NCBI RefSeq assembly: GCF_023055435.1
Contig: NW_025964223.1
Coordinates: forward strand, 7,316,001-7,380,000
Direction of reading: 5' to 3'
Origin: Haliotis rufescens
Lineage: Eukaryota
DNA length: 64,000 nt
The notes beneath the pieces were generated by a model that saw only the letters and a program-made list of their open reading frames with translations, was not told the origin of the DNA and did no database searches. Both the position numbers and the translations under genes were made by a program. Shown piece after piece: positions 1-29,090 of this stretch (within the stretch, counting starts at the first letter, position 1; every line of letters starts with the position of its first letter).

Positions 1-630
1 AAGGAAGGTCATATATACAATACACAACGCCAAGCGATCAGAGGCGCCATATCTGTGTAGTCTCTGTGCAGAATTACGTCCCTTGAGAGTGTCAGTATCC
101 GCTGATGGTGGGCTTAAATACCAGATTCCACACCAAATTGACCACTGTTCAAAGAAGCGTAAAACCAAACACACTCACTGAGCAACTGTAAACCTAAGCC
201 AAGGAATAAGACACCTTGAACCGTAACACTTATTTAACAGGTCAAAGTGTTCTCATCACCAATTGTTCGTGATTGAACACATGTCTTCGCTCGTCTGCGC
301 ATCATTTAAACGCATTGGGTTCCACTTTGTCCGTTTCCGAGTGTGTGTTTGTGTGCGAGTCATAGAGCTCGTTGACATGGGGATTACGAGTCATAGAGCC
401 CGTTAACATGGGGATGCTTGCACAGCGATGCAGGAACACTTAGGGTGATTTGAAAAGCATCTTTCGCGGACCAGATAACACGTTTATCTGTATGTTTTAT
501 AGAATGAAGATATCATGTTAGAAGCAGGAATACAGAATGTTTAACTTGTTCTCAAATATACACTTAGAAAAAGGCTTCATTCCCTCTTTGTTTTTACATA
601 TTTCGATCTTGCATGTTTCGCTGTTCAGTT

Positions 631-740
631 CGAAGACCCGGGTTTGATTCCCGACATGGGTACACTGTGTGAAGCCCATTTCTGGTGTCCGCCGCCGTGA
701 TATTGCTGGAATATTGCTAATCACTCTCTCACTCATTCAA
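631..740 (+). mobile_element. 5'-truncated tRNA-derived SINE (family A)
   Basis: B-box-like GGTTTGATTCC, then the body and tail shared with the full copies at 24963 and 50443. Confidence 0.75.
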
Positions 741-1643
741 TGTGATCATGGCAAATTCACGGTCGGGACACCAGAAATAGGCTCCACACAGCCAAGCCTG
801 GGTCATCGGCGTAACGAGACAAGGCTTAAACAACTAGGCTACTCCACCGCCTGGAAAACATATTATCATATTTGACCGCGATAAATCGGGGCTGGCTCGA
901 CAGATTGATGCATACTCAATAAATATTGTATATTGCCTTCAGCACAACGTTCAGCAAGTGAATGTTGTTTAACGCCGCAGTCAGCAATGTTGGTGTCTGA
1001 GCGAGACAAGCCAATGTTTGATACACAGGAATTCGTTATTGGTCAGTAAATGAAACTCTATATAAATGTATATTTATTGACCAATAACGAGTTCCTGTGG
1101 TTTGATATGTTGTGTAACAATCCACACTGTGGAATCCAGATGACACGTAGGCTCTTGCAAGCATGGCGTACCTGGGATCTTGCATGATCCGGAATCCTCG
1201 TATGACATGAGAACATGGCACAAGGAATAGAGGATAATAAACTCTGTTGACACTTAACGTGGGAGGTGATCATTGTCAGACTGGCGTCCCGGGTATTCTG
1301 CCAAGGGAGGTAACTCCAGTGTTCTGCAGTGTTTCCTATGCCAAGATGTTTCATATATTAAAGATTCCTAATGACATTATTCTTACAAAGGTAATTATAT
1401 TTCCATATGCTATGTTTCTACCAAGTCACCGAGTCTAACCACCCGATCCATTTAGTCTCCTCTTACGGCTAACATAGGATGCTGGGGACATTATCGTCTT
1501 TTGAAACATTAATCTTTATATATAATGAGTATTGTATTTACATGTGGGAATTCAGTCTACCTCAAGCTTATCGCAATGAGAATTTTCTTTCTTATTCACC
1601 ACACTCTACAGTAATTATTAAAGCAACTCTTTTTTCATTAAAA

Positions 1644-1649
1644 TTTATT
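1644..1649 (-). promoter_or_regulatory. Candidate poly(A) signal of the deubiquitinase gene
   Basis: AATAAA on the minus strand about 710 nt past the stop codon. Confidence 0.35.
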
Positions 1650-2359
1650 GTATTGAAACAAAAGAGTTGATGAGTTATGAATGGACACAATTTAACATAC
1701 AATTGATGAAAAACATAAAAAACAAACAATAACGACAAATCAAAATCAAATTCCCAACGGTAACAGAAGTTTGTTTTTCCACTTTTGTTTATCATGACGC
1801 CTAAATCAGATGATTGAACGGATGTCACCCGCATCCTGATCAGGACTTGCTTGATGTCTGTGTTACATCTGTGTTCAACAGTCCTCGCTAGGTGGGACCA
1901 CTTTGTGTCTCTTGTTTTGGGCCTTCAGCGTGGCAGTTACTCGTATCCCAGCATGCTGTCAATGTTCAGCCTGTGCTCCATTATAGTCTCGTTAACAAGT
2001 AAGCCTGTTCTCCATCAACTCGTGTGCCTGCTCCTCCCTTTAGGAGAAAATCTTGATGCAGCTTTCAGGCTGTAAGTGTCTCTTAGCAGACCGTGCATGC
2101 TGTTACTACCACACGTGTCCAGCCTGTGTTCAATGAGGTAGCATCAAGTGCTGGCCTTGCATGTTGAGACTACTATAACAGTGTGCATATCGTGCCCAAT
2201 CAGTCATAATCAAGCCATGTTCTGGCCTTGCTCTGAAGGAGGACAAATGCACCTCGATGTGGCCACCAGAGATCGTGTCCTTTTTCATTCTCACAGAGGG
2301 ACAGATGCACCTCAAGGTGGCTGTCATACCGAAAGTTTGGGAAGGTACTACCAGGGAAG

Positions 2360-4265
2360 TTATCCCCCTTCTGACATCGACTCGACCTTGAACCCTGTCA
2401 GCGAATACTGAGTGGGTCCTACTGCCATGCCACTGTAATAAGCCACCACTTGACTCAGGGAAGGAAACCTCAGAAGGCTCGACTTCCCATCAACGTCAGT
2501 GGCGCCTAAAATATCCTTGACATGGCTGTCGACAACCATCCAGCCACCAGCAGGGTTCTGCAGCAAGGCCGAGCTTCTGCCATCAAAGGTGATAATGGCT
2601 CCCTGGCAGTCCTGGGCGTTGACAACCCTCCCCACAGCATCCCCAAACTCCCTGAGGGGCTGGCCTGGCATCCACTCCCAGGTCAACTGACTCGTTAGGG
2701 AGTTCGAGTCCATGCTGCCAGGGTACAGAAGTCCCTGCATCTCGCAGACTCGGCCGCACCGGACAGGCCATCTCGACTGGGAGTCTTCTGGCTCCTCCAT
2801 CATCTCGTCTGCTGCCAGATGTTTGCTGAGAGGAGCCCAGCTTCCCATGGTGTCGAGGATGGCGTCATGAAGACGGTCCCCCATGACGAGGACCCCGTCA
2901 AGTGTAGCTGGAGTCCACAGACCAGCAGGAACAACTGCACTGGCAACAATGGCGGTGAATGCCACCGAGGTGCACTGGGTTCCTGGATGTCGAGATCTGA
3001 AAGAAAAGAAACAAGAACTTTTATTCACAGAAGTAACTTTTGAAAGATGAATTTCGAAGTTGTTCTCAAATAAAAAAAGTATTGTTTAAATTCCCTCATC
3101 AAAATATGCCTAAAGGGTTGACTGCAATGTTTAAGTAGTACATAATTCTCCAATATTACAAATATTTAGTTTATACACTTCACTTACGGGCTCCACACTT
3201 CTGAAATGTGGCCTTGGTGGAAGTGTCCGAGGATGGAGTGTCTGCATTCAGGCTGACCGGACACTTCCACTGTGTCCTTGACCTCTGTAGCTGACTGGCT
3301 GGACGTGGGTGGGAGTTCCCTGGCGGTCTGGGCTGTGTGCGCAGATCTTGATGGGAGAAGAGGGTGTTCCCCGGCCGGGGTGCCATATCCAGAAAGAGTA
3401 GCCCGAGGCTGTGAGCTGTAATCCCCTGGGGTGGGGGTAAGGAAGCTCCTTAAGTCCAGTATAGGCTTCTGGGACCTTCAATGTGAAGAGAGAGACGTTT
3501 AGTTTCAGTGATGGAGTATCGTATCATTATGACGTATGAAACTACATTGTTACAAGAATACTGTATCGATTTGAAAAAACAAAAGTTTACATTACTGTTT
3601 TAGTTCTGACGGCTAAAATAAACATCCGAATGGCGGGGAATAATGGCACCATAGCGTTATTGTAAAACATACTAGCTGCCCTAACCTTGATCTCTCGAGG
3701 AAAAGACAGCAGTTTATAATTTGGTCAGTTTCGTATAAGGGAGTGCGACTTACCTAGGGCTGGGACGGGTAACTCGGGTACCCGGGTCGGGTGGGTACTG
3801 AGTAGGACCCGGGCACCCACAGGACTACCCGGACCCGTGGTTAGTCACGTGATATATTGTTTAATGACCAAAATAATCTAGAACTCCATGGTTACACTAC
3901 AAATCACTAATGTTCGCATTTCTTTCTGGCTATGCACCCATATCTTCTGATTTTTCATATGATTGAATAAAGATATAACTTAATTCAACTTCAGTGTATG
4001 AATGACCAGATTGTTCAATACATGTATCTAAATACGTTTTACCAGGGCTATGCTAAAAATGTTCCCATTCGGACATTTTGAGACATCTCCTGAGACCTAC
4101 AGTGGGTACCCGGGTAGGATCGGGTAATAGGGGGGTGGGTACCCGGGTAGTAAATTTGGACTCGTCCCAGCACTTCACTTACCCATTCAGGGATCTTGCA
4201 GGAAGTTCTTTGATCTTTGTCTCTTTGTAATAATCGCCCCCGTCATCCTTCAAGTCAATTATCAT
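2360..4265 (-). CDS. Viral-tegument-like deubiquitinase (VTD / peptidase C76-like), 3 exons, about 335 aa
   Basis: Exons 4265-4183, 3475-3188, 2996-2360; GT-AG, both introns phase 2; 1008 nt open. Motifs GHFHQG, GTQC (catalytic Cys), W-x4-LDGVLVMGD and VVDSH (Asp/His). Exon 1 is the least certain. Confidence 0.75.
3755..4175. mobile_element. hAT-type MITE, 421 bp
   Basis: TIRs TAGGGCTGGGACG / CGTCCCAGCACTT; 8-bp TSD GACTTACC / CACTTACC; subterminal GGGTACCCGGG repeats; related copy at 46651. Confidence 0.8.
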
Positions 4266-6191
4266 AGTATCAGTTATCAATACTGTTACTGCTACTTGAC
4301 TGTATGCTCGGCTAATATCAGAAATGTAAAGACTACGTTGTCGTTGTTTACTGTTCGAACAGCGAGCTTGAGTCTGATATATATCACAGTATTATATATG
4401 CCATCATGGTATCATTATAAAGTATCAGTTAGTTTCAGTTGTCAAGACTGACGACTAGATCCTCTACAACATATACCACTACACGACAACTACAAATAAC
4501 AACTGGTAATGCATCGAATCCTTCAACCAATCGGTTCTCACTGTTCGAATGGTATTTGACGACGACTATTAATACTGCTGTTGAACATGGGATGAACTGT
4601 TTCTACAGGACCTGGACAAGTTGACATCTTCATTTGTGACTGTGCCACGAGGAAAATTTAAACTTTAATTTGTCAAGCGGAGACAAATAAATATATTTCA
4701 GCGTGTTACTGAGGGCTTCGTGGACTTGGAGAGACACGGGTACAAAGGTCATTAGGCAAAAAATATGGTTCGAACACGAAAGCACTAGGAAGACAATAAT
4801 ACTATGAAACCTACCGCTACTCGAAAGGTGCAGCAGAATCTCCGGGCCTGCCGAGAACACCACTTCCTGAGTCTACGGAAGTACGACTGGGGAATGTGGA
4901 TCTTACTCGCCATTGTGTCCAGGGCAGATGTACCAGTGTTTCAGAGACGTTGGGAATGCATAAAAGATATTAATTCACATACAAATATGCCAGTGGCACG
5001 CCACTCACGGCGAATCAAGAGTTGGTGTGAAGTCAAACGCCCCTCTCTTGCAACTCAGGCGACAATCGTGTGACGTCATGAGAAACAACCAATCACAGTG
5101 CGTCACTAAGTGGCTCCATACAGCGACATTTCAAAACACCATTTGGAAGAGCTGGTAAGTGGCTCAAAGTCCAAAATCAATAATCTACATTCGGTATTTG
5201 AATTAACTTTGTGTCCTTTTTATCACATCTTTAATCTTCCACAAGGTTAAAACGGTTTAGAATCTAATTAAGAAAAAATGTTCATGGAAATACGTGTAAG
5301 AGAACAAAACAATTACCCTTGAAACACGCCTTTAATATTATATTATGCACATACAATTACAGTATTACACACTACATGTAGTTCTCCACTGCAAATACAC
5401 AGAAACTATAGGGGACTAGAAATGGGCAAGTTGCAACCTATTCATTGACTCAAAATCCACTTGTTTGATAAATCAAAACTGATCACGTACATCAATCTTA
5501 CATGCATTATAGCTAAAATGGATAGAATTATCATAAAAACGCCCGCATGTTATCAGAAATGAGCGAGCCACTGTAACTTGATAATGCCCTCATATCACTT
5601 GACGACGGGCCATTATCACGCCCGTTGTTAGGTGACGTCATAGGATAGGGATAGGTGACGTAACGTTCAATAGTGACGTCATCTGGTTTGTTCTATGACG
5701 TTTCCATATTTGTAAAAGTGGGTCAGTGACATTCGTGTTGTTTGCAGTAAATGTTTCAAAATCGACATTGTTGTTTCTTTTTATTTGATAACAAATTCCA
5801 TCCATTTTAGCTATAATAACGGTAACGCTATTTTTCAGGGCATTATCATTTTGCAGAAGCCCTCGGTCTTTTCAACTGCCCTCCTTCGTCGGGCAGTTAA
5901 TGGAAGACCTCGGGCTTCTGCAAATGATAATGCCCTGGACCCGGTTGTATCAAAGCCTCATTAACTAATGGCTACATTAAACCCTAATGATACATTAAAT
6001 GCTTAATGCACCATTAGTTAATGGCATCATTAAAATCGGTTGTATCAAACGTTTATTAGCATATCATTATCTAATGATGCCTTAATGTAAGTGTCCTCAT
6101 TAAGCTGTCATTAAATTCGGTGTTTCCCCTAAATATTTCCCACAATTCCTTGACGTAAACACGTACGCGTTACTTCCGGTCGTCTGTCAAA

Positions 6192-6266
6192 ATGGCATCG
6201 TATCCACCTAAACCTAGGAATAGAAACAAGAATTTCGACAGCTCCGAAATTCAGCTATTAGCTTAA
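6192..6266 (+). pseudogene. Truncated Harbinger Myb/SANT gene stub (24 codons, then TAA)
   Basis: Identical to the first 24 residues of the ORF at 8927; the stop is created by the deletion junction. Confidence 0.85.
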
Positions 6267-6441
6267 CAGTAATAAACAAAGCTGGGAAACCATATCCCTT
6301 TGATTCAACATGAAAAGAGAAAAGTGCACGCGTTGACAAATACATACAGCGAACACTGTCAACTTATTTCTTCAGTGACAACAGATGGTATCTCTGCATT
6401 CTTCTGTATAGTTATATTAAAGCAGAGACAGTTTGACCATT

Positions 6442-8497
6442 TCAGTTAGTGAAATAGTGCCTTGTGATGTAATCACGGATGCCCCGTCCATCTTCGGGAC
6501 CTGTATATTGCCCTTCAATGTTACTGTCGTCCTCTCCATCAACATCCAGCATGGGTTCACGAAGAATTATCGCCAGATTATGCAACACAGCACAAGCACC
6601 TGTGAAATATAGTATGATTGTTTAAAGGGTTTACAGTATTGTTATCATTCGATTCTTATGTTATATGAAGGAGTGTTTCCCACTGGTGTTAGCACTGTTC
6701 CAGCTATATATATATGCGATCTTATATATCGGTTAGCTTCAAATTTATTTCATAGTTACAATGTATATTATTATCTTAAAAAGCTAACCAATGATGGTGC
6801 AAACTCTCTCTGGGCTCATCCTGATTTCACCGTGCAGAACATGGAAACGCCGTTTGAGCCACCCAAATGCTCTTTCTATGGTTGACCTTGTTCTTTTATG
6901 GGAAGAGTTGAATCGCTCTTGCTCGGGGCTAGATGGCTTTAGATACGGAGTCATCAAATACGGACGACATGCGTATCCACTGTCACCGAGAATAACGCCG
7001 TCTTGTAGAGTCGTATGGTGTGTTTCCAGGTGTTGCCGCACGTTACTCATCTTGAACACGTGGCTGTCATGCGTACTGCCTGGCCATCTCGCCACTAAGT
7101 TAGTAAATTTACCTACAGATCGAGACAAATGGGGTCAATGTTAATATAAGTCAATATTACCATCGAACTAGGTTCATATAGCAGCCACTGCCATATAGCT
7201 GAAACATTGCTGATCGCGGCATTAAACAACAAATGCTGAAATCATATCATACTATAAAGATTTGTCTCATAGCTATTTCGTTTAACAACGTGAATGGTGT
7301 CAGGGTCGTAAACATATTGTCCTTGTGACTTTGAAGGGAGGACGTGTATGCTCCATGCACAGGTTTAACAGTGACATTTGATTTGTTATTATAAAATTTT
7401 ATTTAACACACCTTGGCTGTCACACACTGCTTGAACGTTGATCGAATGGTAGCCTTTCCTGTTGACAAAGGCAGGTTCGTTGTCTGATGGTGCCTGTATC
7501 CGTACATGTGTCCCATCGATACATCCGATGACTCCAGGAAATCTAGATATATTGTAGAATTCTTTTCTAATGTCGCCTATATCCCTCTCGGACGGCCAGG
7601 TAACAAACTTGGGCACAAGTGACGCAATGGCAAGGGAAACTTTCCTCACAACTCGTGAGGCTGTTGATTTGTCTATCCCTATTGTGTCGCCAGTGATTTG
7701 CAGGAAACTTCCACTTGCAAAGAAACGTAGGGCTACCAGAACCTGATAAAATGATTATAAAGAGGCTAATGATAGGTTTGACAAATTTTCAAATATTTCC
7801 ATAATACTTATATCTACTTTGTTATTTATTTGGCTGCGTTTTCATTATGTCTCACTTAGTAAAGTGTTAATGATTGGTATAAGATGTGCATGCTTTAATT
7901 AATTAAAATGTTCTTTTGGCCGGAATCGAACTCGCAAAACTGTTCTCTTCAGTGTGCACGACACATTTAGTTTAAGTCATTAGAGTAACTTCCCCTTATG
8001 AAATTGATCATGGCTGACAACGCCAAGTTGAAAACGTATCTTTCTGGAGTGAAGTGAAAGGGATCCATGAATTTACATTACTTTCAATTGTGAAATATAT
8101 TTACAAGGTTGGTATCATTAGGCTGCACATATGACTTTACCAACACAGACCAGTGAGCTGACCCACGTAGAAGTGCGTTTCATTCATTGTAAAGATTGCC
8201 GCTATAACTTTGGCGCTATAATTATGTGTTTATTTCAAACTAGCTGAGTTTCTAGTGACGACGTGTTAATTATCAAACATTTACCTGTAGTTCAACACTA
8301 AGTGCGTGCGATCTTGAAGATTTGGGCTGTAATTCATCTCTCACAAGATCGCAGATATATCCGATGCTTGCCTTCCCAAAACGGTAGCGTGCCCTTACTT
8401 CTTCCTCGCTCATGGATTCGAGGTGTTGAGTTCGTTTTCTGAAAACACGGTCTTTCCTTGTGCGTCCTAAGCGTTCAAACAATATGTTCGCGGCCAT
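6442..8497 (-). CDS. Harbinger DDE transposase (HARBI1-like, DDE_Tnp_4), 4 exons, 341 aa
   Basis: Exons 8497-8285, 7742-7412, 7112-6789, 6599-6442; motifs [43 protein letters not shown]. Confidence 0.92.
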
Positions 8498-8926
8498 GTT
8501 TGTTTTTAATGACACGCTAATGATGCCCCAGAACCTTCATTAAGTTAATGACGCGCTAATGACACCACGACGTCATTAAAACGTTAGTACAACTGGATTT
8601 AATGATACATTAGTTAATGAAGGTTTAATGACACGTTAATGCATCATTAAAGTTTGATACAACCGGGTCCTGGACCCGGTTGTATCAAAGCCTCATTAAC
8701 TAATGGCTACATTAAACCCTAATGATACATTAAATGCTTAATGCACCATTAGTTAATGGCATCATTAAAATCGGTTGTATCAAACGTTTATTAGCATATC
8801 ATTATCTAATGGTGCCTTAATGTAAGTGTCCTCATTAAGCTGTCATTAAATTCGGTGTTTCCCCTAAATATTTCCCACAATTCCTTGACGTAAACACGTA
8901 CGCGTTACTTCCGGTCGTCTGTCAAA

Positions 8927-10930
8927 ATGGCATCGTATCCACCTAAACCTAGGAATAGAAACAAGAATTTCGACAGCTCCGAAATTCAGCTATTAGCCGA
9001 GTTGGTGGAGAAACACATCTCCATACTTAACAGTAAGTTTTGCAGCACCGTTACCCACGAAAGAAAGAATGCTATTTGGGCAGACATAACTTCCAAAGTT
9101 AACGCCCTCGGTGTTTGTCAGCGTACAACAAAAGAAATAAAAACAAAATGGACGAACATGCACCAGACGGCCAAAAGGGAATTCAGTAACAGACAGCTGG
9201 ACATGAGGAAGACCGGGGGAGGGCCCTGTATTGCCCCACTTTCCACGACGAGTGAAAAGATAGTTGACATTTACAAGGAATGTCCCAGTTTCACTGGACT
9301 CACGGGCATCGAATCGGACGATCTAGTGATGCAAATGGGTATGTCGCCTGCGTTCAATAAAATATCGATACACAAACTGTTGTAAGTTTTAAAAAGTACT
9401 TTACATGAGACAACGAACAAGTAGCCTAATCAAATCAGCTGCTCATACACGTTGAACAAGGCTATGGGGAATGGGATGTTGCACATGATTTGATGATCAT
9501 ATATCAAGAGGAAATGAAAAAACAAACATTTAACCAACCTTTTTCACAACTATACTCTTTCAGTACAATTGCCGGTTGTGATAAAATACACAGTGCACAG
9601 TTTCATATTTTTCATCAGTTCTCCGACCGGCAGCCATTGTGAAACGAGAAGGGGGGCAACTCTCATTACCCCTGTTCCTAACCCAAAAGTTCACGTTGTG
9701 TCTTTCGATGTTAAGTTCAAATCTTGACATTTTTCGTCTCCAAATGCATATTTTATGTGAAGCATTTTTACTTTTCAAGAGAGAATTTACTTATGACGAC
9801 AAAATTGGGTGAAATATATGCCTCATTATATCAAACTAATTTTTTTTCAACGTGGTTGAATAGGACATATGTTATCAAACACAAATTTAACATACAATTC
9901 TAATATATCATTTCATTTGGCTATAAGGCTAATGATAATAACACTGGTGCCAACATGAGTAAAAGAAAAACACTTATACAATCAGAATTTGTTTTTGCAC
10001 TATAGAGGGGTGAAGGTTTTTGTTGTTTTCAATCTACTATTTCATCATTTGTCATGGGTTGGGATAATTATTTCTGTAGAAACGATTTTGTTACCCGTGA
10101 AGAAAAATAAGACGACAAAAGAAAATGTATTATCGTGATCCATAGCTAATTCTCACTGGAACCGAAAAACAAATGTAATTAGTTGAGCGCAACAGAGTTG
10201 TGTCCCTTTACTGCTGGTTCGTGTAAACCGTACCTCTCCGGTTTCAACAGTGTAATCAAATATTAATTATCGTTATATAACAACTTATTTTCAAAAAGTG
10301 TGCAAATAACTTTATGTGTGTGCAGGTACGGAAGTCGCCGATGTAATTGCCACTCCTTCGACTTTACATCTGTTAGCACGGGCTTTAGAAGAAAATGTTG
10401 GCGATGTCCCTATTCAGGAAGCGTCTGTGCCGAATTGTTCCAGCTCACAGATCTACCCAGAAGGAGAATTGTCTGTCGACCCATCTGCATTACATGCCGA
10501 CATCAATACCATGGAAGAGTATGTCGTATTATTTCATACTGGGATCTATCTTCTTGCAGCAGTGCTAACATACATGAAATGCCAAGTCCTTTTCTGCACT
10601 CGCCCACCCATTAGATTGTAACACTCAAACTAATTTTGGCCTTTAACATACGCGTATACACCGTAGAATTAATTGTATATACATACGGAGACTCGCATGA
10701 CCATAATGATCAAATGATACAAAACAATATATTTTTTCAGGCCTTTGGTCCAGACTGTGTCGAAATCAAATCGTGTCACCAAGAGAAAGATCAAACAGGA
10801 TGACATCACTCGACTGCAGTATGAGGTTTTGCTTGAGCAGAAAAAAAAAGTCATTCAGCAAACTATTTACTTTGAGCTCATGAACAAGAAGCTCCGATTG
10901 GAGTTGGATAGCTTGATGCACTATGAATGA
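8927..10930 (+). CDS. Harbinger Myb/SANT-like DNA-binding protein, 3 exons, 264 aa
   Basis: Exons 8927-9338, 10326-10518, 10741-10930 (phases 1 and 2 match); NF-x3-E-x2-L, W-x2-I-x3-VN, KW and TGGG motifs; coiled-coil-like C-terminus. Confidence 0.9.
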
Positions 10931-11599
10931 AAATGACATCCTCATGTTTGAAATGTTACTAAGAGTTCATTAAAAAATATACAATTAGTTTGATAGTGTG
11001 CTACTCAGTGTTGTGTTGTATATTGTATAGCTTCAATTGAACGAACGGGAGATAACTAACAATGTCAATTTTAATAAATTGTTATCCATCTTTTACTTTA
11101 TACTATATACAAGTAACCAAACACGTATCACTTCGGTAGATTGCTGGGTGCTCTTTACGTATGTAGCTGTCAATAACGATGAGTTGATGAGATAAACCGA
11201 TCAGTTAATTCACGATTTCGATGAAATTTATATAAACCATATTCAATAAAATTAATGTGATAGACTCATTGCTAAAGATACACAAAGAACCTTACATGCT
11301 CACCGTGAAGTCTTGGCGTTGTGCAACAAATTCAAACTCATTGTATGCGTGTAGCGTTTAGCCGTATTTTTCTGAAGGGAAATGTGCACTGTACACTGGA
11401 CAATATTTACGCAGTAATCTAAATTAAAGTTAAACAAAGCTGGGAAACCATATCCCTTTGATTCAACACGAAAAGAGAAAATTGCACGCATTGACAAATA
11501 CATACAGCGAACACTGTCAACTTATTTCTTCAGTGACAACAGATGGTATCTCTGCATTCTTCTGTATAGTTATATTAAAGCAGAGACAGTTTGACCATT

Positions 11600-13655
11600 T
11601 CAGTTAGTGAAATAGTGCCTTGTGATGTAATCACGGATGCCCCGTCCATCTTCGGGACCTGTATATTGCCCTTCAATGTTACTGTCGTCCTCTCCATCAA
11701 CATCCAGCATGGGTTCACGAAGAATTATCGCCAGATTATGCAACACAGCACAAGCACCTGTGAAATATAGTATGATTGTTTAAAGGGTTTACAGTATTGT
11801 TATCATTCGATTCTTATGTTATATGAAGGAGTGTTTCCCACTGGTGTTAGCACTGTTCCAGCTATATATATATGCGATCTTATATATCGGTTAGCTTCAA
11901 ATTTATTTCATAGTTACAATGTATATTATTATCTTAAAAAGCTAACCAATGATGGTGCAAACTCTCTCTGGGCTCATCCTGATTTCACCGTGCAGAACAT
12001 GGAAACGCCGTTTGAGCCACCCAAATGCTCTTTCTATGGTTGACCTTGTTCTTTTATGGGAAGAGTTGAATCGCTCTTGCTCGGGGCTAGATGGCTTTAG
12101 ATACGGAGTCATCAAATACGGACGACATGCGTATCCACTGTCACCGAGAATAACGCCGTCTTGTAGAGTCGTATGGTGTGTTTCCAGGTGTTGCCGCACG
12201 TTACTCATCTTGAACACGTGGCTGTCATGCGTACTGCCTGGCCATCTCGCCACTAAGTTAGTAAATTTACCTACAGAACGAGACAAATGGGGTCAATGTT
12301 AATATAAGTCAATATTACCATCGAACTTGGTTCATATAGCAGCCACTGCCATATAGCTGAAACAGTGCTGATCGCGGCGTTAAACAACAAATGCTGAAAT
12401 CATATCATACTATAAAGATTTGTCTCATAGCTATTTCGTTTAACAACGTGAATGGTGTCAGGGTCGTAAACATATTGTCCTTGTGACTTTGAAGGGAGGA
12501 CGTGTATGCTCCATGCACAGGTTTAACAGTGACATTTGATTTGTTATTATAAAATTTTATTTAACACACCTTGGCTGTCACACACTGCTTGAACGTTGAT
12601 CGAATGGTAGCCTTTCCTATTGACAAAGGCAGGTTCGCTGTCTGATGGTGCCTGTATCCGTACATGTGTCCCATCGATACATCCGATGACTCCAGGAAAT
12701 CTAGATATATTGTAGAAATCCTTTCTAATGTCGCCTATATCCCTCTCGGACGGCCAGGTAACAAACTTGGGCACAAGAGACGCAATGGCAAGGGAAACTT
12801 TCCTCACAACTCGTGAGGCTGTTGATTTGTCTATCCCTATTGTGTCGCCAGTGATTTGCAGGAAACTTCCACTTGCAAAGAAACGTAGGGCTACCAGAAC
12901 CTGATAAAATGATTATAAAGAGGCTAATGATAGGTTTGACAAATTTTCAAATATTTCCATAATACTTATATCTACTTTGTTATTTATTTGGCTGCGTTTT
13001 CATTATGTCTTACTAAGTAAAGTGTTAATTATTGATATAAGATGTGCATGCTTTAATTAGTTAAAATGTTCTTTTGGCCGGAATCGAACACGCAAAATTG
13101 TTCTCTTCAGTGTGCACGACACATTTAGTTTAAGTCATTAGAGTAACTCCCCCTTATGAAATTGATCATGGCTGACAACGCCAAGTTGAAAACGTATCTT
13201 TCTGGAGTGAAGTGAAAGGGATCCATGAATTTACATTACTTTCAATTGTGAAATATATTTACAAGGTTGGTATCATTAGGCTGCACATATGACTTTACCA
13301 ACACAGACCAGTGAGCTGACCCACGTAGAAGTGCGTTTCATTCATTGTAAAGATTGCCGCTATAAATTTGGCGCTATAATTATGTGTTTATTTCAAACTA
13401 GCTGAGTTTCTAGTGACGACGTGTTAATTATCAAACATTTACCTGTAGTTCAACACTAAGTGCGTGCGATCTTGAAGATTTGGGCTGTAATTCATCTCTC
13501 ACAAGATCGCAGATATATCCGATGCTTGCCTTCCCAAAACGGTAGCGTGCCCTTACTTCTTCCTCGCTCATGGATTCGAGGTGTTGAGTTCGTTTTCTGA
13601 AAACACGGTCTTTCCTTGTGCGTCCTAAGCGTTCAAACAATATGTTCGCGGCCAT
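11600..13655 (-). CDS. Harbinger DDE transposase, 4 exons, 341 aa
   Basis: Exons 13655-13443, 12900-12570, 12270-11947, 11757-11600; 1026 nt open; catalytic D-D-E motifs intact. Confidence 0.93.
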
Positions 13656-14544
13656 GTTTGTTTTTAATGACACGCTAATGATGCCCCAGAACCTTCATTA
13701 AGTTAGTGACGCGCTAATGACACCACGACGTCATTAAAACGTTAGTACAACTGGATTTAATGATGCATTAGTTAATGAAGGTTTAATGACACGTTAATGC
13801 ATCATTAAAGTTTGATACAACCGGGTCCTGAAAAATAGCGTTACCCTTATTTTAAATGATGACGACAAATTCAATTTTTCAGTTTCACAAGCGCTAATTA
13901 CAACGTCCAGATCTGAAGTTAAAAATTAAAATTAAAAATTAATTACAACCAACTGCATGGGGCTAGCCTGATAGTGTTAATTTGCATCCGTGAAAAGACA
14001 ATTACGGCGGTCAACATTTGTTGAGCGCGTGTGCTCCGTGCGTGTGCATGTTGCTCAACTGCAGGTCTATTTGACATTCACTTACTTATTCACTCAAATT
14101 TTCAACAGACAGATTAGTATATTATTTTAATAAACAGTGTAATCAACAACGTGGATAATAGAGGGGATCGGCTTCAGTTTATTTTCTGAAAGATACAATA
14201 ATTTCATGACAGAGTTGTCTCCCATTCAAATGTTTGACATCATTAAGAGGGGCTTTGTACAGGGCTTATTGTCTGGTGGTTTTTAATTTGCACGTACTTT
14301 TGAAAATCAAAAAGCTTTTAATAGTATGTGTACAATTTGCACACAGACATGAAAGGTGTTTTAGAAAATATAACCTAATTAAACATGTAATAAAAACATT
14401 TTGATTTTTTTTCTTGGCCCTACATCAAATAACCCAGAGCTACGCTGCCAAGAGAGAGTTCATTTCACTGACTTGTTGTTTAAAGGAAAGAGTTCAAAGT
14501 GAATTCAGCATGCAGATTGTAGGGATTGGATTTCATTCGGGCAA

Positions 14545-14641
14545 ACGTTTATAAAACATGAAACGTTGGCCCTACGATATTTAGCCAGCGTTGGACCGAC
14601 GGTCAAAATAACGATGGCCCAACGTCAGACTGCTATCTGGG
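14545..14641. mobile_element. End fragment of an EnSpm/CACTA-like MITE
   Basis: Terminal TGCTATCTGGG with internal CGTTGG/CCAACG repeats; no partner end found. Confidence 0.35.
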
Positions 14642-15039
14642 CAGCTACTCTACGCTCGATGAGATTGGCCTAAGGGCTGTGCCATATTTTGCCGACCCCC
14701 ATCCTCACCCCTCGCCTTTATATAACACTATTTCACAGACACCATGACCATCCCTTCCCCCCACTCCCCACCAAAAAAAACACGTTTTCCCCAATTTTCC
14801 TGGAGCACTTTAAAAGTTTACATTCCAAGGTAATCCCTGGGATAATTTTTGCGTTGTGGTCAGACTGGGGGCTAGTCTAAGGGGGGTAACTCTGGCCTGT
14901 TTAGCTCGGAAAACGAAGTACTCATTTGTCATATACATTTCGGCGCTGTGATTACCGGCGCATGACACCACTGTCACAGGCTAATTTGCGTATCACGTGA
15001 ACGGACTTTTCTCCAGTAAACAAACGCGCTTATTCTGTT

Positions 15040-15300
15040 CTCATGGTCGCGTTCCACAAAGCGGTCGTAACTACTATCAATCTTAGTGAGATACATGTAC
15101 GTCGATTTTACAATCGTCTTGGTTTCGCTCCATTCGTCGACCTCTGTCGGCATCAAACGCGTTCGTAGCACCAACTTCACAGCAAGCGAGAGCGTTGTCC
15201 TGGTTGATGAGATGGCTGTTCACCCTTTAACTAAGAAGATTGTAAAATCTGAGTCATTGAGATGGATTGTAGTAACGATCGCTTTGTGAAACTGGACACT
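15040..15300 (+). mobile_element. Decayed relic of a second Harbinger-like family with a Myb N-terminal remnant
   Basis: KRVRSTNFTASESVVLVDEM resembles the start of a Harbinger Myb protein; TIR-like end GTGAAACTGGAC. Confidence 0.4.
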
Positions 15301-15332
15301 GATTTTATATATATTGAGGACGTTCTTCAATG

Positions 15333-15560
15333 TTTGTTTGTTGTTTAACGCCAAACTCAGCAATATTCCAGCTATATGACGGCGGTCTGTAAGTAATCGA
15401 GTCTGGACCAGACAATCCAGTGATTGACAACATCATTGATCAACGCAATTGGGATCGATGACATGCATCAATCAAGTCAGTGAGCCTGATCGCCCGATCC
15501 CGTTAGTCGCCTCTTACGACAAGCATAGTCGCCTTTTACGGCAAGCATGGGTTGTTGAAC
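15333..15560 (-). mobile_element. SINE-like retroposon family B, partial
   Basis: Reverse complement of the copy at 28827; (AAAC)n tail. Confidence 0.85.
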
Positions 15561-16347
15561 ACAACCCCAACTAATTAATGGCCAATAAATGTTCAGTCTA
15601 AATGTGAATCCACATTATCAATATATTTCAAATTAAAAAAACCAGTTGAGACATGTGAGACTGAGATCAGGGTTTAATGCGACGGACAAATGTGCGTGAT
15701 GTACATGCAGAGAATGGACGCACAGTATTCATTGTATCTACATGGTATAAAGAGCAATGATGGGTGTCTGTTATTTCATCCATCAATCATAACCACAGTC
15801 CACACGATCCATTATTCATTCCAGGATCAATATGTACAGTATACTACAACGAAGTTGGCGGGGGATATATAAATGGGTTCCTCCGTCCGTCCTTGCGTGT
15901 GTGCTGACCTGTCCCTCTTGGGACTCGTGCGTGTGAGTGGGGTACACATATCTATTATGAGTTTTAGTATTGAAAAAAATTATGTTTTTGTATTGATATG
16001 ATTTTATGTTACATTTTTAGTAATTGGTAGAATTTTCTTTGCTGTACTGTTTTTATACGTTCAAGGAGCTGAGCATATCGTGGCTTCGGGAGATCTACGA
16101 CAGATAGACTGCACTTCTTGTTTTAACTGAGCTCAGACTTGGGCATGGTCTCGACATTCCAGTAACAAATGAGCTATGGATTCAAGATGGGCATACCTTA
16201 GCATAATGCTTTTTGCGACCGAGTCTCAGGAGTAAGATGGCTACTTTCCTTTCATTTGAGTATGAGTATGGGTTTTTGTCGTCTTGGGACCATGACTTAG
16301 CCAAGGTCATCTGAAACGGATTAAGATATAAACAACACTAATAATAA

Positions 16348-16520
16348 GTGAGTGAGTGAGTGAATGAGTATGGTTTTATGCCGCTTTTAGCAATATTCCA
16401 GCAATATCACGGCGGGGGGCACCAGAAATAGGCTTCACACATTGCACCCATGCTGGGAATCGAACCCGGGTCTTCGGCGTGACGAGCGAACGCTTTTAAC
16501 CACAAGGCTACACGAGCGCC
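16348..16520 (-). mobile_element. tRNA-derived SINE family A
   Basis: A and B boxes, (ACTC)n tail. Confidence 0.88.
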
Positions 16521-18131
16521 CAACAAATAATGAGAAGTGACCTAGCTGCACATCTCGTTCTTGTTGGCTGTCAGTCAATGTACATTACAATGGGGATTGA
16601 AAATTGGGATGCACATCTTATAAGTAATGGCAATTAAGTGATTGTAGACACATACATGTCATGACCACAGGGTAGTTAGTCTTTGTAATTAGATGTTCAT
16701 TCAGACAAAGGATGTCCCAAATTGGTCGCTATGAGACCTCAATGAGCCGAAACAAAAATACACAGTCAATCCTTATAATATAATTTGACAATGAAAACAT
16801 GTGTTATCAAAAAACAGTTATATACATCAAAGCAGACAAATATGACGAGATTGATAAACATTCCAGGCGTAGAAATACATAATGTGTCATGACATGAATC
16901 AGGTGATTGTTTAATTTATGCACAGAGCTTAACACGCCCACAAAGTCAGTAGCCAATTAACATCAATATCAAACACAGTTCACAGGACCTTTCAATCAAG
17001 GCGAGAAGAACTGCAGCTATTATGATTGGAGAATTTAAGGCGGCTGACCTAATCAATGGCCGTCAGATCAACACATTAATTCCCTAAGAACTGGAAGACA
17101 CAGTTGGAAACAAATTGAGTTAGAAATGAAATAAAACTTGAAGACAGGAAATTTGTGGAACTGAGATTGTGCGATGTCTGACTTTGTGCAGTGAGTGTGA
17201 AAGATGGCGGTATTGGTGGTATGTTTGATAATGAAAAACCGCACTGAACGGTTACTAGGTCTGATAACTTCATGATGATACATGTGAGCAGACAGGGAAT
17301 TCCCCCGACAATCCGTAGTGAGGTAAGTACTCCGCTTCGGTGGGAGTGGCCTAATTTTTTACCTTCATTGGGAAATGAATATGTGCCCAATTTACCTATA
17401 GAGAATGTAGGAATTACAATGCAGACAGCGGAAATTCAATTAGTAAGTATTGATGGAATACAATGTACAGGTATAAACCTAGACTAATATCGAGTCTCTG
17501 AAATGAACATATCGTACAGAAAACAACAACAACAGTTACATTATCTTTATAAAAATATTATAAAAAGGGGCCAAGAGATCCTCTTCATTTCCTCATACTC
17601 CTGTAATCTAGACGTTTAGAAACATTATAGACTTGCATGGGCTATATTTGATAAACTTGTATCAGGGTCTGTAAGACAGACTAGTATGAACCATATTTTC
17701 TTGAGACCTGTTTGTTCTATAAGGTTAAATGTTTAACAAATAGATATGTGTCTAGGTAACTGATATATGTGCAACAAACTGTTATGGGCCATTTGTATCT
17801 GAGGCCGGTGCAGACATCTGATAATGTCAGTGGCGTGTTCAGGAGGCTCCATGGTCAAGGTCAATATGTGACCAAATATATATTTTTACTTGACCCTCAT
17901 CCAACGAATATGGGGGAAGTAATCCTGAATTGACCCTTAAACTCTAAAAGCACATTTTAAAGATTTTCAGCTTTCTAAATGAGTTCAGAGATGTAAGAGT
18001 TATCTTGAACAATTCATGTTCAAAATGTTTGCCAGACAAGTTGAAAGGAAACATACACAGTAAAACAACTTTTTCTCTGTGGGCTGTAACTTCCGGGTTT
18101 AACACTGTTAGCGGGTGACACAGTTAATGTA

Positions 18132-21100
18132 CTAAAGTCGTAGCGACCGAATGGCTGGCAAAACTATGTGAACTATTATGATGGCAATCCAATGTGTCAG
18201 GTCAGCATTTTTCGCTACAAGGAGGTCAAACACACTTTGGTGTCCACTGACAGCTGCTATCATTATGGGTGTCCGTCCATTCTGTCCTCTAGTGTTGATA
18301 TTAGAAGGTGACACAAGTTGAGATACTATAGACTTGTTACCACCCTCACAGGCAAGATGAAGTAAACTATCACCATTGTTGTCCACCAGTGACAGGTCAG
18401 CTTGCTTTGACACCAGGAGGTCAAACACACGTTGGTGTCCTTTGACAGCTGCTATCATTATGGGTGGACATCCATGCTGTCCTCTAGTGTTGATATTAGA
18501 AGGTGACACAAGTTGAGATACTATAGAATTGTTACCACCCTCACAGGCAAGATGAAGGACACTTTCACCATTGTTGACCACCAGTGACAGGTCAGCTTGC
18601 TTTGACACCAGGAGGTCAAACACACTTTGGTGTCCTTTGACAGCTGCTATCATTATGGGTGTCAATCCATTCTGTCCTCTAGTGTTGATATTAGAAGGTG
18701 ACACAAGTTGAGATACTATAGACTTGTTACCACCCTCACAGGCAAGATGAAGGACACTATCACCATCGTTGTCCACCAGTGACAGGTCAGCTTGCTTTGA
18801 CACCAGGAGGTCAAACACACTTTGGTGTCCTTTGACAGCTGCTATCATTATGGGTGTCAATCCATTCTGTCTTCTAGTGTTGATATTAGAAGGTGACACA
18901 AGTTGAGATACTATAGAATTGTTACCACCCTCACAGGCAAGATGAAGGACACTTTCACCATTGTTGACCACCAGTGACAGGTCAGCTTGCTTTGACACCA
19001 GGAGGTCAAACACTCTTTGGTGTCCTTTGACAGCTGCTCTCATTATGGGTGTCAATCCATGCTGTCCTCCAGTGTTGATATTAGAAGGTGACACAAGTTG
19101 AGATACTATAGAATTGTTACCACCCGCACAGGCAAGATGAAGTAAACTATCACCATTGTTGTCCACCACTGACAGGTCAGCTTGCTTTGACAACAGGAGG
19201 TCAAACACACTTTGGTGTCCTTTGACAGCTGCTATCATTATGGGTGTCCATCCATTCTGTCCTCTAGTATTGATATTAGAAGATGACACAAGATGTTGTA
19301 CTATAGACGTGTCACCACCCTGACAGGCAAGATGAATTATTTCATTTCCCCTTTTGTCTCTGTTTTGTGTGTGTGATATTGATTGCAATACCTTATAACA
19401 CTCATGCGATCCCATGTTAGCAGTAACCATGAGTGGAGTCATCCCTTCGTCATCAATAGAATTCATTACAACTTGCTTCACTTCATCATTATAAAGTTTG
19501 CTCTTATGTTCTTTCAGAACCTTTAGTGTATTCTTATGTCCTAGCATGCTTGCTATGTGTATAATGTTTGTCTTGTTCTCAATAGTAGTAAGCACATTAG
19601 CGCCATGTTCTATCAGATACACAAGTGTTTCAGAACTCCCAAATGCAGCAGCCAGCAAAAGCCATCTGTTCATGGTTAGAATAATGTCTGGATTTTCACT
19701 CCTGGGTATAAGCCACTTCAATACTGTCACGTTGTTGTTCATCACACAACTTTCCAGTGATTCATTGATCTCTGTTCGAGTAAATTCTCCTCCAGTTATA
19801 TTTTCTATTTCTAAGACAATCTTTGTACAGTGTCCAAGAACAGCCCAATTCAAAAAGCACTCCCCCATATCTCTTTTGTGAAACCAACAGTCATCCAGGG
19901 ATCCAACACGTAGTTTATCAAGCAGTTGAAGAGCCACCTTTTCTTGTCGGAGGATCGGGTGTGTCACTGATTTAGAAAACTGCCCCTTCTTGATTGATTC
20001 TGCAAATCGAGTTGTCAGGATATCATAATACTGTTCGGAGACAAATATTAGGTGGAGATGATCATCGATTTTGCTTTCCTCTACTGGTTGTGGCTGCACT
20101 CGCTCATATATGAAGTTGTCACTGCAGTGAGTCAGCACAAATGTTGGACTGATGTCATACAATGAACAAGCACAAGCATCATATATGGAAGAATGGGCAA
20201 ATCCAACAGCATCACCCCGTGTAAAGAATGTTCCTCTAAGACACTTTGCTGCTTCATACATCCCTAAGCGTGACGCTGATGGCATCAACTTTAAAACCTT
20301 TCTGACCATGTTGTCCATTTTCTTGTCCTTGCCGTCTGCTTCCAACATGGCCAAATCTAACTTATCCTCACATAATAGCATCAGAACTAATATGGCGGAT
20401 CGATCAGTTTTTGACCTCAGGAAGCTGTTTAGTTCTAGCCTAAGATAAGACAGTGGTGACTCGAAAATGTTCTTTGTATTTTGGAACATAGACGAAAATT
20501 CAAAATATAGTTTACAGGTGAGAGGATATCCAAATATGTTTGACTCTTTCTCCCACGGTTTGAAGTCGGGTCTATCTTTAGAAGTGTCTCTATGCAGATT
20601 CCGATGGTGCTCAAATATTGCCTGTTTCTCTGCTTGAGTATATCTGTGTTTCTTTTCAGTTGTTAAATCCACCCGTGTTGGTCCCTGGAACAGAGAGAAT
20701 CTCTCATATTGTAGCTGGCCAAGTCCATCATGGAAGTTGTAAGTCTTGGATGTGAAGACAACACGAATATCCTTTTTGGGCTGTGGTTTTCGGTCATGAT
20801 CTCTACTTGCTATATTTTGACCTCTTTTCTCAGCTTCCTGTTTCCTTGGGGATTCACGGTTCTCTGCTGACTTTTTGCAGTGTTTTAAGTGGCGATCAAG
20901 CTTATTGAGAAATGTTTTCAGCTGTGAAACATCGGTAGATAATCCAACAGTACCAAACATGTCATCTATGACCAGAAATACTCTAGGTGATGAGCTCAAG
21001 AAGTTGTCCAAGTCAAACTGTTCAATCCTGTCCACAAAGGCAAACTTGTACCCTCTTCTCTTATACTGTGAACCCAAGATGAGTGCTGCTGTTGTTTTGC

Positions 21101-27100: not shown

Positions 27101-28010
27101 CATTTGGCCTAGGACTATGATGACAACATTCCGGCAAAAGAAAATATTTATTCAGATCTTTCATCTTTAATGTTGACAAATAACATGTTGCGGTTCCTAC
27201 ATTTTTACAGCAATGTATTGAAATATACTTAGAGAATGTACTGTACAATTCAGTGCCATCAACATGGTCTTACTATCTGCATCACAATACTTAGACTTCC
27301 CATCTGTAGAACCTTATGACATCATAATATTGATGTGTACTTACGAACAAAAATGTAATTTTCTCAAGGGATGTCAGTTAGAATAATGCTTACAGGATAT
27401 CTGCCTATGAGCTTTGTTATCTCATCTCACGTTGAAGAAGTTCAAGTATTATGAGGAAAATTTAGGTTTGGGTACAAAAGGCTGGCACATGTAGATAAAA
27501 ATTGATCTGCAATGGTCCTTGAATTTGCTCTTTCAACCTACTGAAAATATTAGGCTCAACCAATGCCACGTCTCTAATCTTTCCCACTATAACCAAATAT
27601 TTCGCAATTGCTTTGTCATTGTGATGTGGCACAGTGGAAATAAACTGTTTTCAATATTGAGGTTTCAAACTTCGATTCGATACCTGTAAATCCTTTAAAT
27701 TCAAAACTTCACGCTTTCTATTCCAAATACAACACAATGGAGTCTGCATTATAAGCAGTGCCTCGATGTGGGTAATACTTGTAACTTAATTCCCAGCTTC
27801 AGGTCTTTGGTGGGTCATGTTATGTTTACAAATTAGTTTTGGATTGAACCATTTATGAAACTCGGTTCATTTACTTATGCTTTGTAAGAGAACGGTAAAC
27901 ATACCTGAGTTGGCGCTCATCGTATTTTCTTCTGAGGTGATGACCTCAATCATCTGGTCATCCTCCTCCTGTGGCAATGACACACGTGTGACATCACTTG
28001 AACTGGCCAT
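18132..28010 (-). CDS. nSTAND3-type P-loop NTPase plus ankyrin-repeat protein (NLR-like architecture), about 1092 aa
   Basis: Exons 28010-27905, 21975-21895, 21223-18132 (both introns phase 1); Walker A GASGEGKT, Walker B FLVIDD, FGYPLTC, FAHSSIYD; many ankyrin repeats. The large exon is secure; the two small upstream exons are predicted. Confidence 0.85.
18196..19340 (-). repeat. Coding tandem repeat, 195-bp unit (two ankyrin repeats), about 6 near-identical copies
   Basis: The CCTCTAGTGTTGATATTAGAAGG landmark recurs with a 195-bp period (18286, 18481 and onward). Confidence 0.95.
21385..21645 (-). mobile_element. SINE-like family B
   Basis: Matches the family B body. Confidence 0.85.
22125..22328 (-). 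mobile_element. tRNA-headed SINE family D (Meta-domain-like), partial
   Basis: On the minus strand, CGTCATACCAAAAAGAC..ATGGTACTTG..GGCGCTCGGCATTAAGGGG; same family as 51723. Confidence 0.75.
24963..25132 (-). mobile_element. tRNA-derived SINE family A, inserted in the LINE
   Basis: TSD AAAACTACAA; A and B boxes. Confidence 0.9.
26360..26555 (+). repeat. Unclassified dispersed repeat, second copy at about 59380-59610
   Basis: Both copies share GCCATTTTGTTTAAA..AAGTGATATGAG..AGAAGGGACATAACTC..GACTTTTATAGTCAGTTAA. Confidence 0.65.
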
Positions 28011-28826
28011 CTCAGTCTTAGTTCTTTACACAGCTTCGTCATGCAGGGATGAAGTTGTCATTTTCTGGTCCATCTGAACAAAAATGCAATTTTAAGGAAA
28101 CACATTAATGCAACTGTTTATGCACTTGGGATGGTCTGGTCTTCCAGGGACTTATCTAAACCTGCCCAGAGATCGATTTTGGACAAAGGTCTGCAGAAAA
28201 ATTCAGAAAATAGTCTCAAACTGGAATTAAAAACTTCCCATTCATAATTCACACTTTGTAGTGTTTCACTTGTATCATGACCAATAAAGCAGAACATATA
28301 CGAGTGATCCGACAGGTCAGTCATGTCAATATGACCTCACAAGAACACATGCATCTCCTTGGTTATTGCGTAATCACTGACGATTAAATATGACATGTAA
28401 ACAACGTACAATTTAAAAGGACATCATTCGGACGTGTATCAACAAGATTGAACAAGATGGTTCCTCTCTTCCCGCCCTTACCAGTTCAATAGAAACTTTG
28501 ATAAATTCAGTGACACAGCCAGATGAATGTGAAGATGACTGTTCCCACTACTTTTGTCAACCACGTGTGACACCGCACAAACAGTCATAGTCAGGGTATG
28601 GTGCCCCACCAATATCTGTACTAGGAAATATATGCCAGACATGGTACCTAATAATGAACCACCTATGTTGAAACACTAAGTCCAAACCTCTTCTCCTTCT
28701 CTACGCATCAGGTCTCATACCCGACATTGATATAACCGTTTATTAAGAGGCTATTACGAGTACCTTCCAAAACAATGGCCAATATCCGTGATAGGTTTAT
28801 GTATAAGATTGTAGTTAAAACTGACC

Positions 28827-29090
28827 GACCCGTGAAGATCCGGGGTAGATTAAGTCTTCAGCAACCCATGTTTGTCGTACAAGGCGACTATGCTTGTCTT
28901 AAGAGGCAACTAACAGGATCGGGTGGCCAGGCTCGCTGACTTGGTTGATGCATGTCATCGATCCCAATTGCGTGGATCGATGCTCATGATGTCAATCACT
29001 GAATGGTCTGGTCCAGACTCGATTATTTACAGACCGCCGTCATATAGCTGGAATTTTGCGAAGTGCGGCATTAAACAACAAACAAACAAA
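28827..29090 (+). mobile_element. SINE-like family B, full length
   Basis: TSD TAAAACTGACC; starts GACCCGTGAAGATCC; (AAAC)n tail. Confidence 0.92.

Follow-up and report, generated by a model that had tools for sequence, protein, structure and literature searches.

According to the accessible part of Erven et al. 2022 (PMC9741609), to which all statements credited to that paper below refer, the VTDs are a recently defined class of deubiquitinases, and what leads animals to keep them time and again is posed as an open question. In the zebrafish enzyme DrT1-VTD2 (PDB 8ADD), C322, D451 and H453 are essential, and D376/E377 hold the tail of ubiquitin. Every VTD characterised there cleaves ubiquitin, two Helitron VTDs cleave NEDD8, and K6-specific VTDs (Wc-VTD1 and those of fungi and Naegleria) bear an extra C-terminal helix. 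Host-retained animal VTDs are named for insects and nematodes (both male-specific) and for cnidarians (fusion genes), and molluscan VTDs are given only in Helitrons; the accessible text supplements (three) hold no mention of Haliotis, mollus, gastropod or abalone. A literature search found no paper on abalone VTD family genes, with subscription journals and supplementary figures outside its coverage.

Here we describe LOC124116573, a minus-strand gene of Haliotis rufescens within a 64,000-nt stretch of contig NW_025964223.1 (the window), together with its paralogue family. A first-pass annotation of these letters had proposed a stand-alone, spliced deubiquitinase gene of the herpesvirus tegument kind, retained by the host. 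The gene lies outside any Helitron, its catalytic set is intact and its product is predicted to have the VTD/peptidase C76 fold, and the abalone family probably works as a host deubiquitinase.

Gene structure, catalytic residues and predicted fold

The RefSeq product of the gene, XP_046333913.2, has 362 aa encoded by four coding exons, and the four-exon model of the window agrees with it at 362/362 residues. The features of the gene are as follows.

4815..4913, minus strand: coding exon 1, residues 1-33; a basic (+9) predicted amphipathic helix, then a Cys pair.
4248..4814, minus strand: intron 1, GT-AG with a weak acceptor; retained in RNA-type contigs matching the window locus.
4263..4265, minus strand: the ATG taken as the start by the first-pass annotation, in frame 6 codons upstream of exon 2 and inside intron 1 of the RefSeq model.
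4183..4247, minus strand: coding exon 2, residues 34-55; a variable linker with 5/22 columns invariant among six proteins.
3188..3475, minus strand: coding exon 3, residues 56-151; the conserved LDL..P..DY..CxC..HP motif, a disordered linker and the first VTD strand with HQG.
3385..3393, minus strand: codons 83-85, CxC in the family, with Ser and Tyr in the window copy only.
2997..3187, minus strand: intron 3, phase 2, between HQG and GxQC.
2360..2996, minus strand: coding exon 4, residues 152-362; the VTD core, with the stop at 2362-2360.

The three segments that had been joined in the first-pass annotation, 4265-4183, 3475-3188 and 2996-2360 (-), do unite in phase, with GT-AG introns of 707 and 191 nt and an open frame of 335 aa that contains HQG, GTQC and DSH. 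It was also correct that the HQG exon (Gln142 at 3216-3214) is absent from the open reading frame (ORF) list, which was thresholded at 100 aa, as its frame is <100 codons. The proposed N-terminus was not confirmed: the upstream exon at 4913-4815 (-), which in the RefSeq model is spliced to 4247 to give the 362-aa form, had been missed, and the ATG at 4265 is intronic in RefSeq. The disordered, Ser/Pro-rich N-terminus envisaged there stands for residues ~80-124, with a predicted local distance difference test score (pLDDT) <50, and not for residues 9-27, predicted as a helix, or residues 61-70 (pLDDT 89).

The AlphaFold2 model of the window protein, built from a 99-row alignment, has a predicted template modelling score of 0.78 and a core mostly at pLDDT >90. 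A Foldseek search with this model gives six matches at E<=0.001, all of them chains of 8ADD, M48 or Wc-VTD1 (8ADD, 1.4e-12; M48, PDB 2J7Q, 8.8e-12). In the VIA structural comparison, 8ADD is the best match at Z 22.6 over 203 aligned residues (root-mean-square deviation (rmsd) 2.5 Å), followed by M48 (Z 20.1, rmsd 2.7 Å) and Wc-VTD1 (16.3), with the first non-VTD structure at 10.8; the model of the paralogue P0016 matches 8ADD at Z 25.1 (rmsd 2.5, 198 aligned). The C76/VTD fold anticipated by the first-pass annotation is thus recovered in the predicted models. At the sequence level, 8ADD is the top PDB match of a profile built from ten abalone sequences (E 0.0067), with the QC, acidic pair and DSH aligned, and the abalone-only profile collects 647 sequences at E<=0.001 from 1.84 billion representatives; among the top 46 of these scanned, 34 carry PF04843 at E<=0.001. 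The top ESM Atlas match is a PF04843 cluster (0.94), and P0016 reaches 23.6 bits (E 4.5e-5) against PF04843 (Herpes_teg_N), under its curated Pfam cut-off of 25 bits.

The intact catalytic set noticed at first is confirmed. Cys159 (codon 2974-2972) and Asp307-x-His309 (2530-2528 and 2524-2522) align with the QC and DSH of 8ADD and are invariant in the family rows that cover them, and the domain is under purifying selection, as described below. Asp214/Glu215 (2809-2804) align to 8ADD chain positions 79/80, counted as D376/E377, and are invariant in 11/11 family rows. The 137 other VTD domains used for comparison were selected for QC and DxH, so that their conservation at these residues is by construction. 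The K6-type C-terminal alpha-9 helix is absent from the model, which ends with a strand at 346-357 and 5 further residues.

It is improbable, in our judgement, that the domain instead acts as a protease on NEDD8, on some further ubiquitin-like modifier or on one specific protein, or that it is a module for binding only. The family has a long stem branch, its identity to solved VTDs is 15-17%, the model contains a low-confidence insertion at about residues 245-268, and two Helitron VTDs act on NEDD8, as cited above. Such a target must be set against the ubiquitin cleavage common to all characterised VTDs in the available account (PMC9741609) and the invariance of the acidic pair for the ubiquitin tail, and a binding-only role against the conservation of the full triad.

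Paralogue family, selection and origin

Among 55 candidates scored, 12 genomic matches to the last exon were found, on 5 contigs, so that the gene is not single-copy. Six matches are nearly full length: the window copy and its tandem sister, one at 7.74 Mb, and three more on C1 (85%), C223 (49%) and C112 (47%); a match on C57 extends to a seventh copy with three exons and an open frame of 224 aa. The family comprises at least five intact paralogue lineages, and a phase-2 intron between HQG and GxQC lies at the same position in all six intact copies examined. A homologue search retained 5 proteins of 286 candidates, all from Haliotis; with H. rubra, H. asinina and H. cracherodii, the homologues bring the family to four Haliotis species including H. 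rufescens. Family row P0017 is 47% identical, and the C112 type is also found in H. rubra. In the window lineage, the H. rubra and H. asinina proteins pair against those of H. rufescens and H. cracherodii. The east/west Pacific split of abalones is dated to 36.4 million years ago in the available part of 10.1101/2024.09.16.613283, and the occurrence of the family on both sides of it sets a minimum age for the family.

Ratios of nonsynonymous to synonymous rates (dN/dS) were computed by NG86 from paralogue comparisons within one genome. In the comparison with the C1 paralogue, residues 131-356 have a ratio of 0.21 (p=3e-10), and in that with the 7.74-Mb paralogue one of 0.18 (p=0.003), so that the domain, at a dN/dS of about 0.2 between paralogues, is under purifying selection. 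The corresponding ratios of exon 1 are 0.20 (p=0.024) and 0.18 (p=0.07), and exon 2 is indistinguishable from neutral.

Several features of the paralogues deserve separate mention. LOC124110332 (C445:7737736-7740384) carries its first exon, which encodes the helix, in two alternative copies that match the RefSeq isoforms X1 and X2; its identity to the window is 96% in exons 3-4 and 73% in exon 2, which suggests gene conversion. The most divergent paralogue, C57:11709000-11711745, has a Lys/Arg-rich basic N-terminus, and its domain is interrupted by an additional intron; QC and DSH are intact, and there is no CxC. Broken fragments of the family lie at C445:7146000-7183300 and C112:7832000-7834500, as three tandem last-exon pieces and a frameshifted copy of the C112 type.

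That the gene is the mobile cargo of a non-autonomous Helitron or Helentron, with its copies made by transposition, is very unlikely and largely refuted. This reading could draw on the 12 matches on 5 contigs, and on over 20 H. rufescens loci that pair PF04843 with Helitron_like_N, mostly in uninterrupted ORFs of 2,500-3,300 aa (lower bounds). In addition, the homology among three copies breaks off at a common point 66 nt after the stop codon; no Helitron-type end was seen by eye at this shared 3' boundary (2294), which fits a conserved stretch of 3' untranslated region together with gene conversion. Tblastn with four Helentron proteins finds no Rep/helicase in 134 kb round the window, where only the VTD exon is matched, in agreement with the absence of such a gene noted at first, and none within 20-50 kb round the other full-length copies; on the window contig, the nearest Helitron_like_N match lies at a distance of 26 Mb. 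Intron 1 and 3' flank sequences used as probes match only two loci, the window and its tandem sister, and the other paralogues share only exons and short adjacent stretches. Moreover, the copies share introns that have diverged, in contrast to the unbroken ORFs of the Helentrons; purifying selection acts on the domain; and the family forms a separate clade. Host retention, as originally suggested, is therefore upheld: the gene is not inside a multi-copy Helitron, its flanks are two-copy and its clade is its own. The Helentron loci themselves hold one or two intact VTDs each, one that was examined has an OTU-like start, and near-identical copies suggest recent activity.

The trees used were a careful tree of 50 rows and a quick version of a 149-row tree, from both of which domains lacking QC or DxH and near-duplicate isoforms were left out. 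In the 50-row tree, the 13 family rows form one branch at 99/95, apart from 8 Helentron-locus rows, and a tree in which the family is constrained with 7 core Helentron rows is rejected by the approximately unbiased test (p-AU 0.012, 50 rows). The stem branch of the family is long, at 0.59-0.7 changes per column.

Descent from an older Helitron is the likely origin, given the best structural match and the Helitron-borne state of most non-viral VTDs, including molluscan ones, in the available text of PMC9741609. It is rather unlikely that the domain came from a virus or from an old vertical lineage. Such an origin would suit a family that is not nested in the abalone Helentron VTDs and whose nearest tree neighbours are weakly supported; the structural ranking, with the Helitron VTD (Z 22.6) ahead of M48 (20.1) and Wc-VTD1 (16.3), speaks for the Helitron, and a two-pattern scan of IMG/VR, a weak test, returned no relative. 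A search for fused forms of greater length (637-2000 aa), also a weak test, found none.

N-terminal module, splicing and the state of the window copy

The conservation of residues 1-33 matches that of the enzyme core, with 22/33 invariant columns vs 158/227 among six proteins. They carry their net charge of +9 with an 18-residue hydrophobic moment of 0.71 (shuffle p=0.03), and the helix modelled at residues 9-27 runs ahead of the Cys pair (Cys27/28). By its motifs, the exon 1 helix is likely a membrane anchor, possibly palmitoylated. The C112 type (35% identical) also starts with a basic helix and cysteines, with a moment that is not significant (p=0.14), and the annotated C223 type lacks a basic-helix start. 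A mitochondrial presequence, which the Arg-rich exon 1 without acidic residues might also resemble, was ranked below the membrane anchor, since this part of the C112-type paralogue contains a Cys-x-x-Cys as well as acidic residues.

The motif at residues 60-92 is common to the C445, C1, C223 and C112 types. It is modelled at high confidence twice, with pLDDT 89 in the window model and 93 in an independent model of a 35%-identical paralogue, which suggests that it packs on the catalytic domain. The alignment of both models to Wc-VTD1 starts inside the motif, at Wc-VTD1 residue 283, upstream of the helix implicated in binding the proximal ubiquitin; as a matter of range ends alone, this is a hint that the modelled motif may be linked to the proximal-ubiquitin side. 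His92, Cys132 and Cys231 are present in 10/10 aligned family proteins and Cys83/Cys85 in 9/10, the window copy being the exception. In the 137 other VTD domains, the five most frequent residues at 132 and at 231 do not include Cys, and the C57 paralogue lacks, by eye, both the motif and the two cysteines. This co-occurrence of the motif with Cys132/Cys231 suggests a metal site or disulfides, and Cys83, Cys85, His92, Cys132 and Cys231 possibly form a metal site. A complex prediction of the motif (55-104), the catalytic domain and zinc, with alignments left out, scored 0.02 and was not used as evidence. The searches run gave no look-alike of the N-terminal module, and the ESM Atlas no usable match for residues 1-135.

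The splicing evidence comes from contigs of four runs with four organism labels, called RNA-type here on a guess at their nature, as none is recorded as RNA among those listed. The junction of intron 2 (3475/4183) is skipped in 4/4 runs and that of intron 3 (2996/3188) in 3/4, with GT-AG ends. Both junctions named in the first-pass annotation are hence seen, in the contigs of related organisms and not for the window copy itself: in 4/4 runs the contigs read Cys at codons 83 and 85 and Ala at 310, and derive from relatives. Contigs that match the window locus continue into intron 1 or across it without splicing (X4, a single contig of 2,521 nt that reaches from 2000 to 5194; X1, 4181-5492; X7, 4181-4383; and X10, a 1,242-nt contig that extends from 5232 into exon 3). 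In two runs exon 1 is joined at 4815 to exon 2 of other paralogues, so that family members do splice from this donor position. The acceptor of intron 1 is poor in pyrimidines, to the same degree in each of the four copies compared (0.50-0.55, vs 0.68 for intron 2 and 0.77 for intron 3), and contigs drop rare transcript forms. As the locus-matching contigs are unspliced through 4248-4814, the ATG at 4263..4265 may be used, and is a possible start of a 335-aa form without the N-terminal helix; it is also present in frame in the sister copy and the 7.74-Mb paralogue, and the C1 paralogue lacks it. For the window copy, a 362-aa and a 335-aa form are both possible. In the form that retains intron 1, translation from exon 1 meets a stop 9 codons into the intron, and 25 upstream ATGs lie in the 1.25 kb before 4265.

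The surroundings of this copy are marked by a duplication and by insertions, as follows.

1..30897, starting 8.4 kb before the window: tandem duplication unit of ~39 kb, which holds the window gene and an nSTAND3-ankyrin gene.
3754..4171: high-copy miniature inverted-repeat transposable element (MITE) within intron 2; its terminal inverted repeats are short, and an 8-bp target duplication, near-perfect, repeats the splice donor.
5511..13854: insertion nest made up of a pair of Harbinger-type copies that lie side by side (DDE_Tnp_4 nuclease, Myb/SANT ORF) and of two small elements with inverted repeats.

The blocks of the tandem unit are mostly 88-97% identical. The sister copy is broken, by a 134-bp deletion that removes the HQG segment and its donor and by a GT-to-GA change at the exon 1 donor, and is represented in RefSeq by a 135-aa product. 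The insertion nest (8.3 kb) lies 600 nt upstream of the ATG and is absent from the sister copy. Changes private to the window copy are 6 nonsynonymous and 7 synonymous in 321 codons, compared with 7 and 4 in the broken sister. The window copy is a young tandem duplicate that shows signs of divergence.

An alternative is that LOC124116573 is a decaying or silenced duplicate within a functional family, which we regard as possible if doubtful. Such decay would accord with the youth of the duplicate and the breakage of its sister, with the loss of Cys83 and Cys85, which makes up 2/6 of the private amino-acid changes, with Val310, with the MITE in intron 2 and the Harbinger nest upstream, and with the early stop and many upstream ATGs on intron 1 retention. 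It is opposed by the intact frame, splice sites and catalytic residues, all of them preserved, by the private changes as compared with those of the broken sister, and by contigs with the two-copy intron 1 match that are spliced at introns 2 and 3 in related organisms.

Other observations concern the mobile elements and neighbours. The MITE at 3754-4171, presumably hAT-like, inserted exactly at the splice donor and left a working donor upstream; the sister copy has the empty site. The Harbinger-type copies (window 5937-13830) are 99% identical over 2.4 kb and lie head to tail within a small inverted-repeat element. At 18132-21239 (-), a single frame of 1,035 aa encodes an nSTAND3 NTPase with ankyrin repeats and a 195-bp tandem array; it was co-duplicated with the VTD gene, its sister frame measures 1,425 aa, and it is possibly an immune-type STAND protein of variable repeat number. 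An intact Tc1/mariner transposase frame of 358 aa (DDE_3, HTH_Tnp_Tc3_2) occupies 34824-35900 (-). Two short frames at 33527-33895 (-) and 32452-32790 (-) have no significant Pfam or PHROGs match; the former, by its motifs, may resemble a packaging ATPase fragment of a Polinton or adintovirus. A purine-rich minisatellite of 4.4 kb with 36/39-nt units and extreme GC and AT skew spans 54132-58505, and further repeat arrays lie at 42638-43375, 45068-45693 and 47581-48148.

Proposed mechanism and comparison with known systems

We consider it probable that the family acts in the host as a deubiquitinase of the viral/Helitron kind, which cleaves K48, K63 or K11 chains or NEDD8, is anchored by its helix and is tuned by its motif. 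By analogy with DrT1-VTD2, in the accessible part of PMC9741609, and with M48, Cys159 would attack the bond after the C-terminal glycine of ubiquitin, with His309 and Asp307 as the other members of the triad, and Asp214/Glu215 would grip the RxR tail of ubiquitin; with no K6-type C-terminal helix in the model, cleavage of K48, K63 or K11 linkages or of NEDD8 is the better guess. The N-terminal amphipathic helix and Cys pair would tether the enzyme to a membrane, and the motif at 60-92 would pack on the catalytic domain, perhaps held by a metal, and tune activity or chain choice. The window copy, which has lost Cys83/Cys85, may be made without the helix.

A number of observations weigh against this reading. 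Neither the window exons nor five close homologues hit Pfam PF04843, a single-sequence phmmer search of the PDB misses 8ADD and returns chance matches only (cytochrome c oxidase, E 0.016), and the fold match is partly transitive, as many generic VTDs are in the AlphaFold2 alignment. The sister group of the family has a support of 55/81, with weakly placed neighbours. As to expression, the RNA-type contigs differ from window exon 4 by 11-20 changes over 620-1000 nt, no transcript of the exact window copy was found among those of related organisms, and the 4815/4247 junction is absent in 4/4 runs of one contig search, with none among 15 of 80 joints in another. The window copy alone has lost the CxC of the family, its Val310 after the catalytic His is found in 1/11 family rows (and is common to the sister copy), and 8.3 kb of transposons lie just past the 5' end seen in related contigs.

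A more far-reaching version, which we put forward as an unlikely speculation, is an independent molluscan domestication that made of a transposon deubiquitinase a membrane-anchored, self-regulated enzyme, in which a motif particular to the lineage is clamped to the catalytic domain by a Cys/His metal site near the proximal-ubiquitin side and sets chain specificity or autoinhibition, and in which paralogues diversify by loss of modules, with a possible role in germline or in anti-transposon or antiviral control of ubiquitin in a host rich in intact VTD-bearing Helentrons. If this were true, mutation would have cost the window copy its clamp, and intron retention its membrane helix. The probabilities given here to the alternative explanations are not in every case mutually exclusive.

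The nearest described systems differ from the abalone gene in distinct ways, here again with reference to the accessible part of PMC9741609. The Helitron/Helentron VTDs, of which zebrafish DrT1-VTD2 is the structural reference, are alike in fold, in the Cys...Asp-x-His triad, in the acidic pair and in the lack of a K6-type helix. The abalone protein, at 17% identity to DrT1-VTD2, is not fused to RepHel, OTU or endonuclease, and unlike the Helitron VTDs its gene has four exons, an intron inside the domain, its own N-terminal helix and Cys/His motif, and purifying selection as a host gene. The herpesvirus tegument deubiquitinases (M48, 2J7Q; BPLF1; UL36; C76, PF04843) share fold and triad order with it; they form the N-terminus of a virion protein of 2,000-3,000 aa, whereas the abalone protein is encoded by a cellular, spliced gene for 362 aa and falls below the Pfam cut-off. 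Drosophila ms(3)76Ca and the single-VTD genes of C. elegans are likewise non-transposon genes with a single VTD and complete catalytic residues, but they are very divergent, are expressed in the male germline and have a coding sequence that is VTD only, whereas the abalone family is of the Helitron-like sequence class and has an extra N-terminal module. The inactive iVTD proteins of insects, which are among the top profile matches, also carry a Helitron-like domain outside a transposon; they hold up to seven mostly inactive domains, and the abalone proteins one intact domain.

VTD domestication itself is already known, which limits the surprise. In a farmed mollusc, the family has been kept across a ~36 million-year split and allows a third test of the male-germline pattern, its N-terminal module has a natural mutant in the window copy, and the tamed family stands beside intact VTD-bearing Helentrons in one genome, so that tamed and mobile enzymes may be compared directly.

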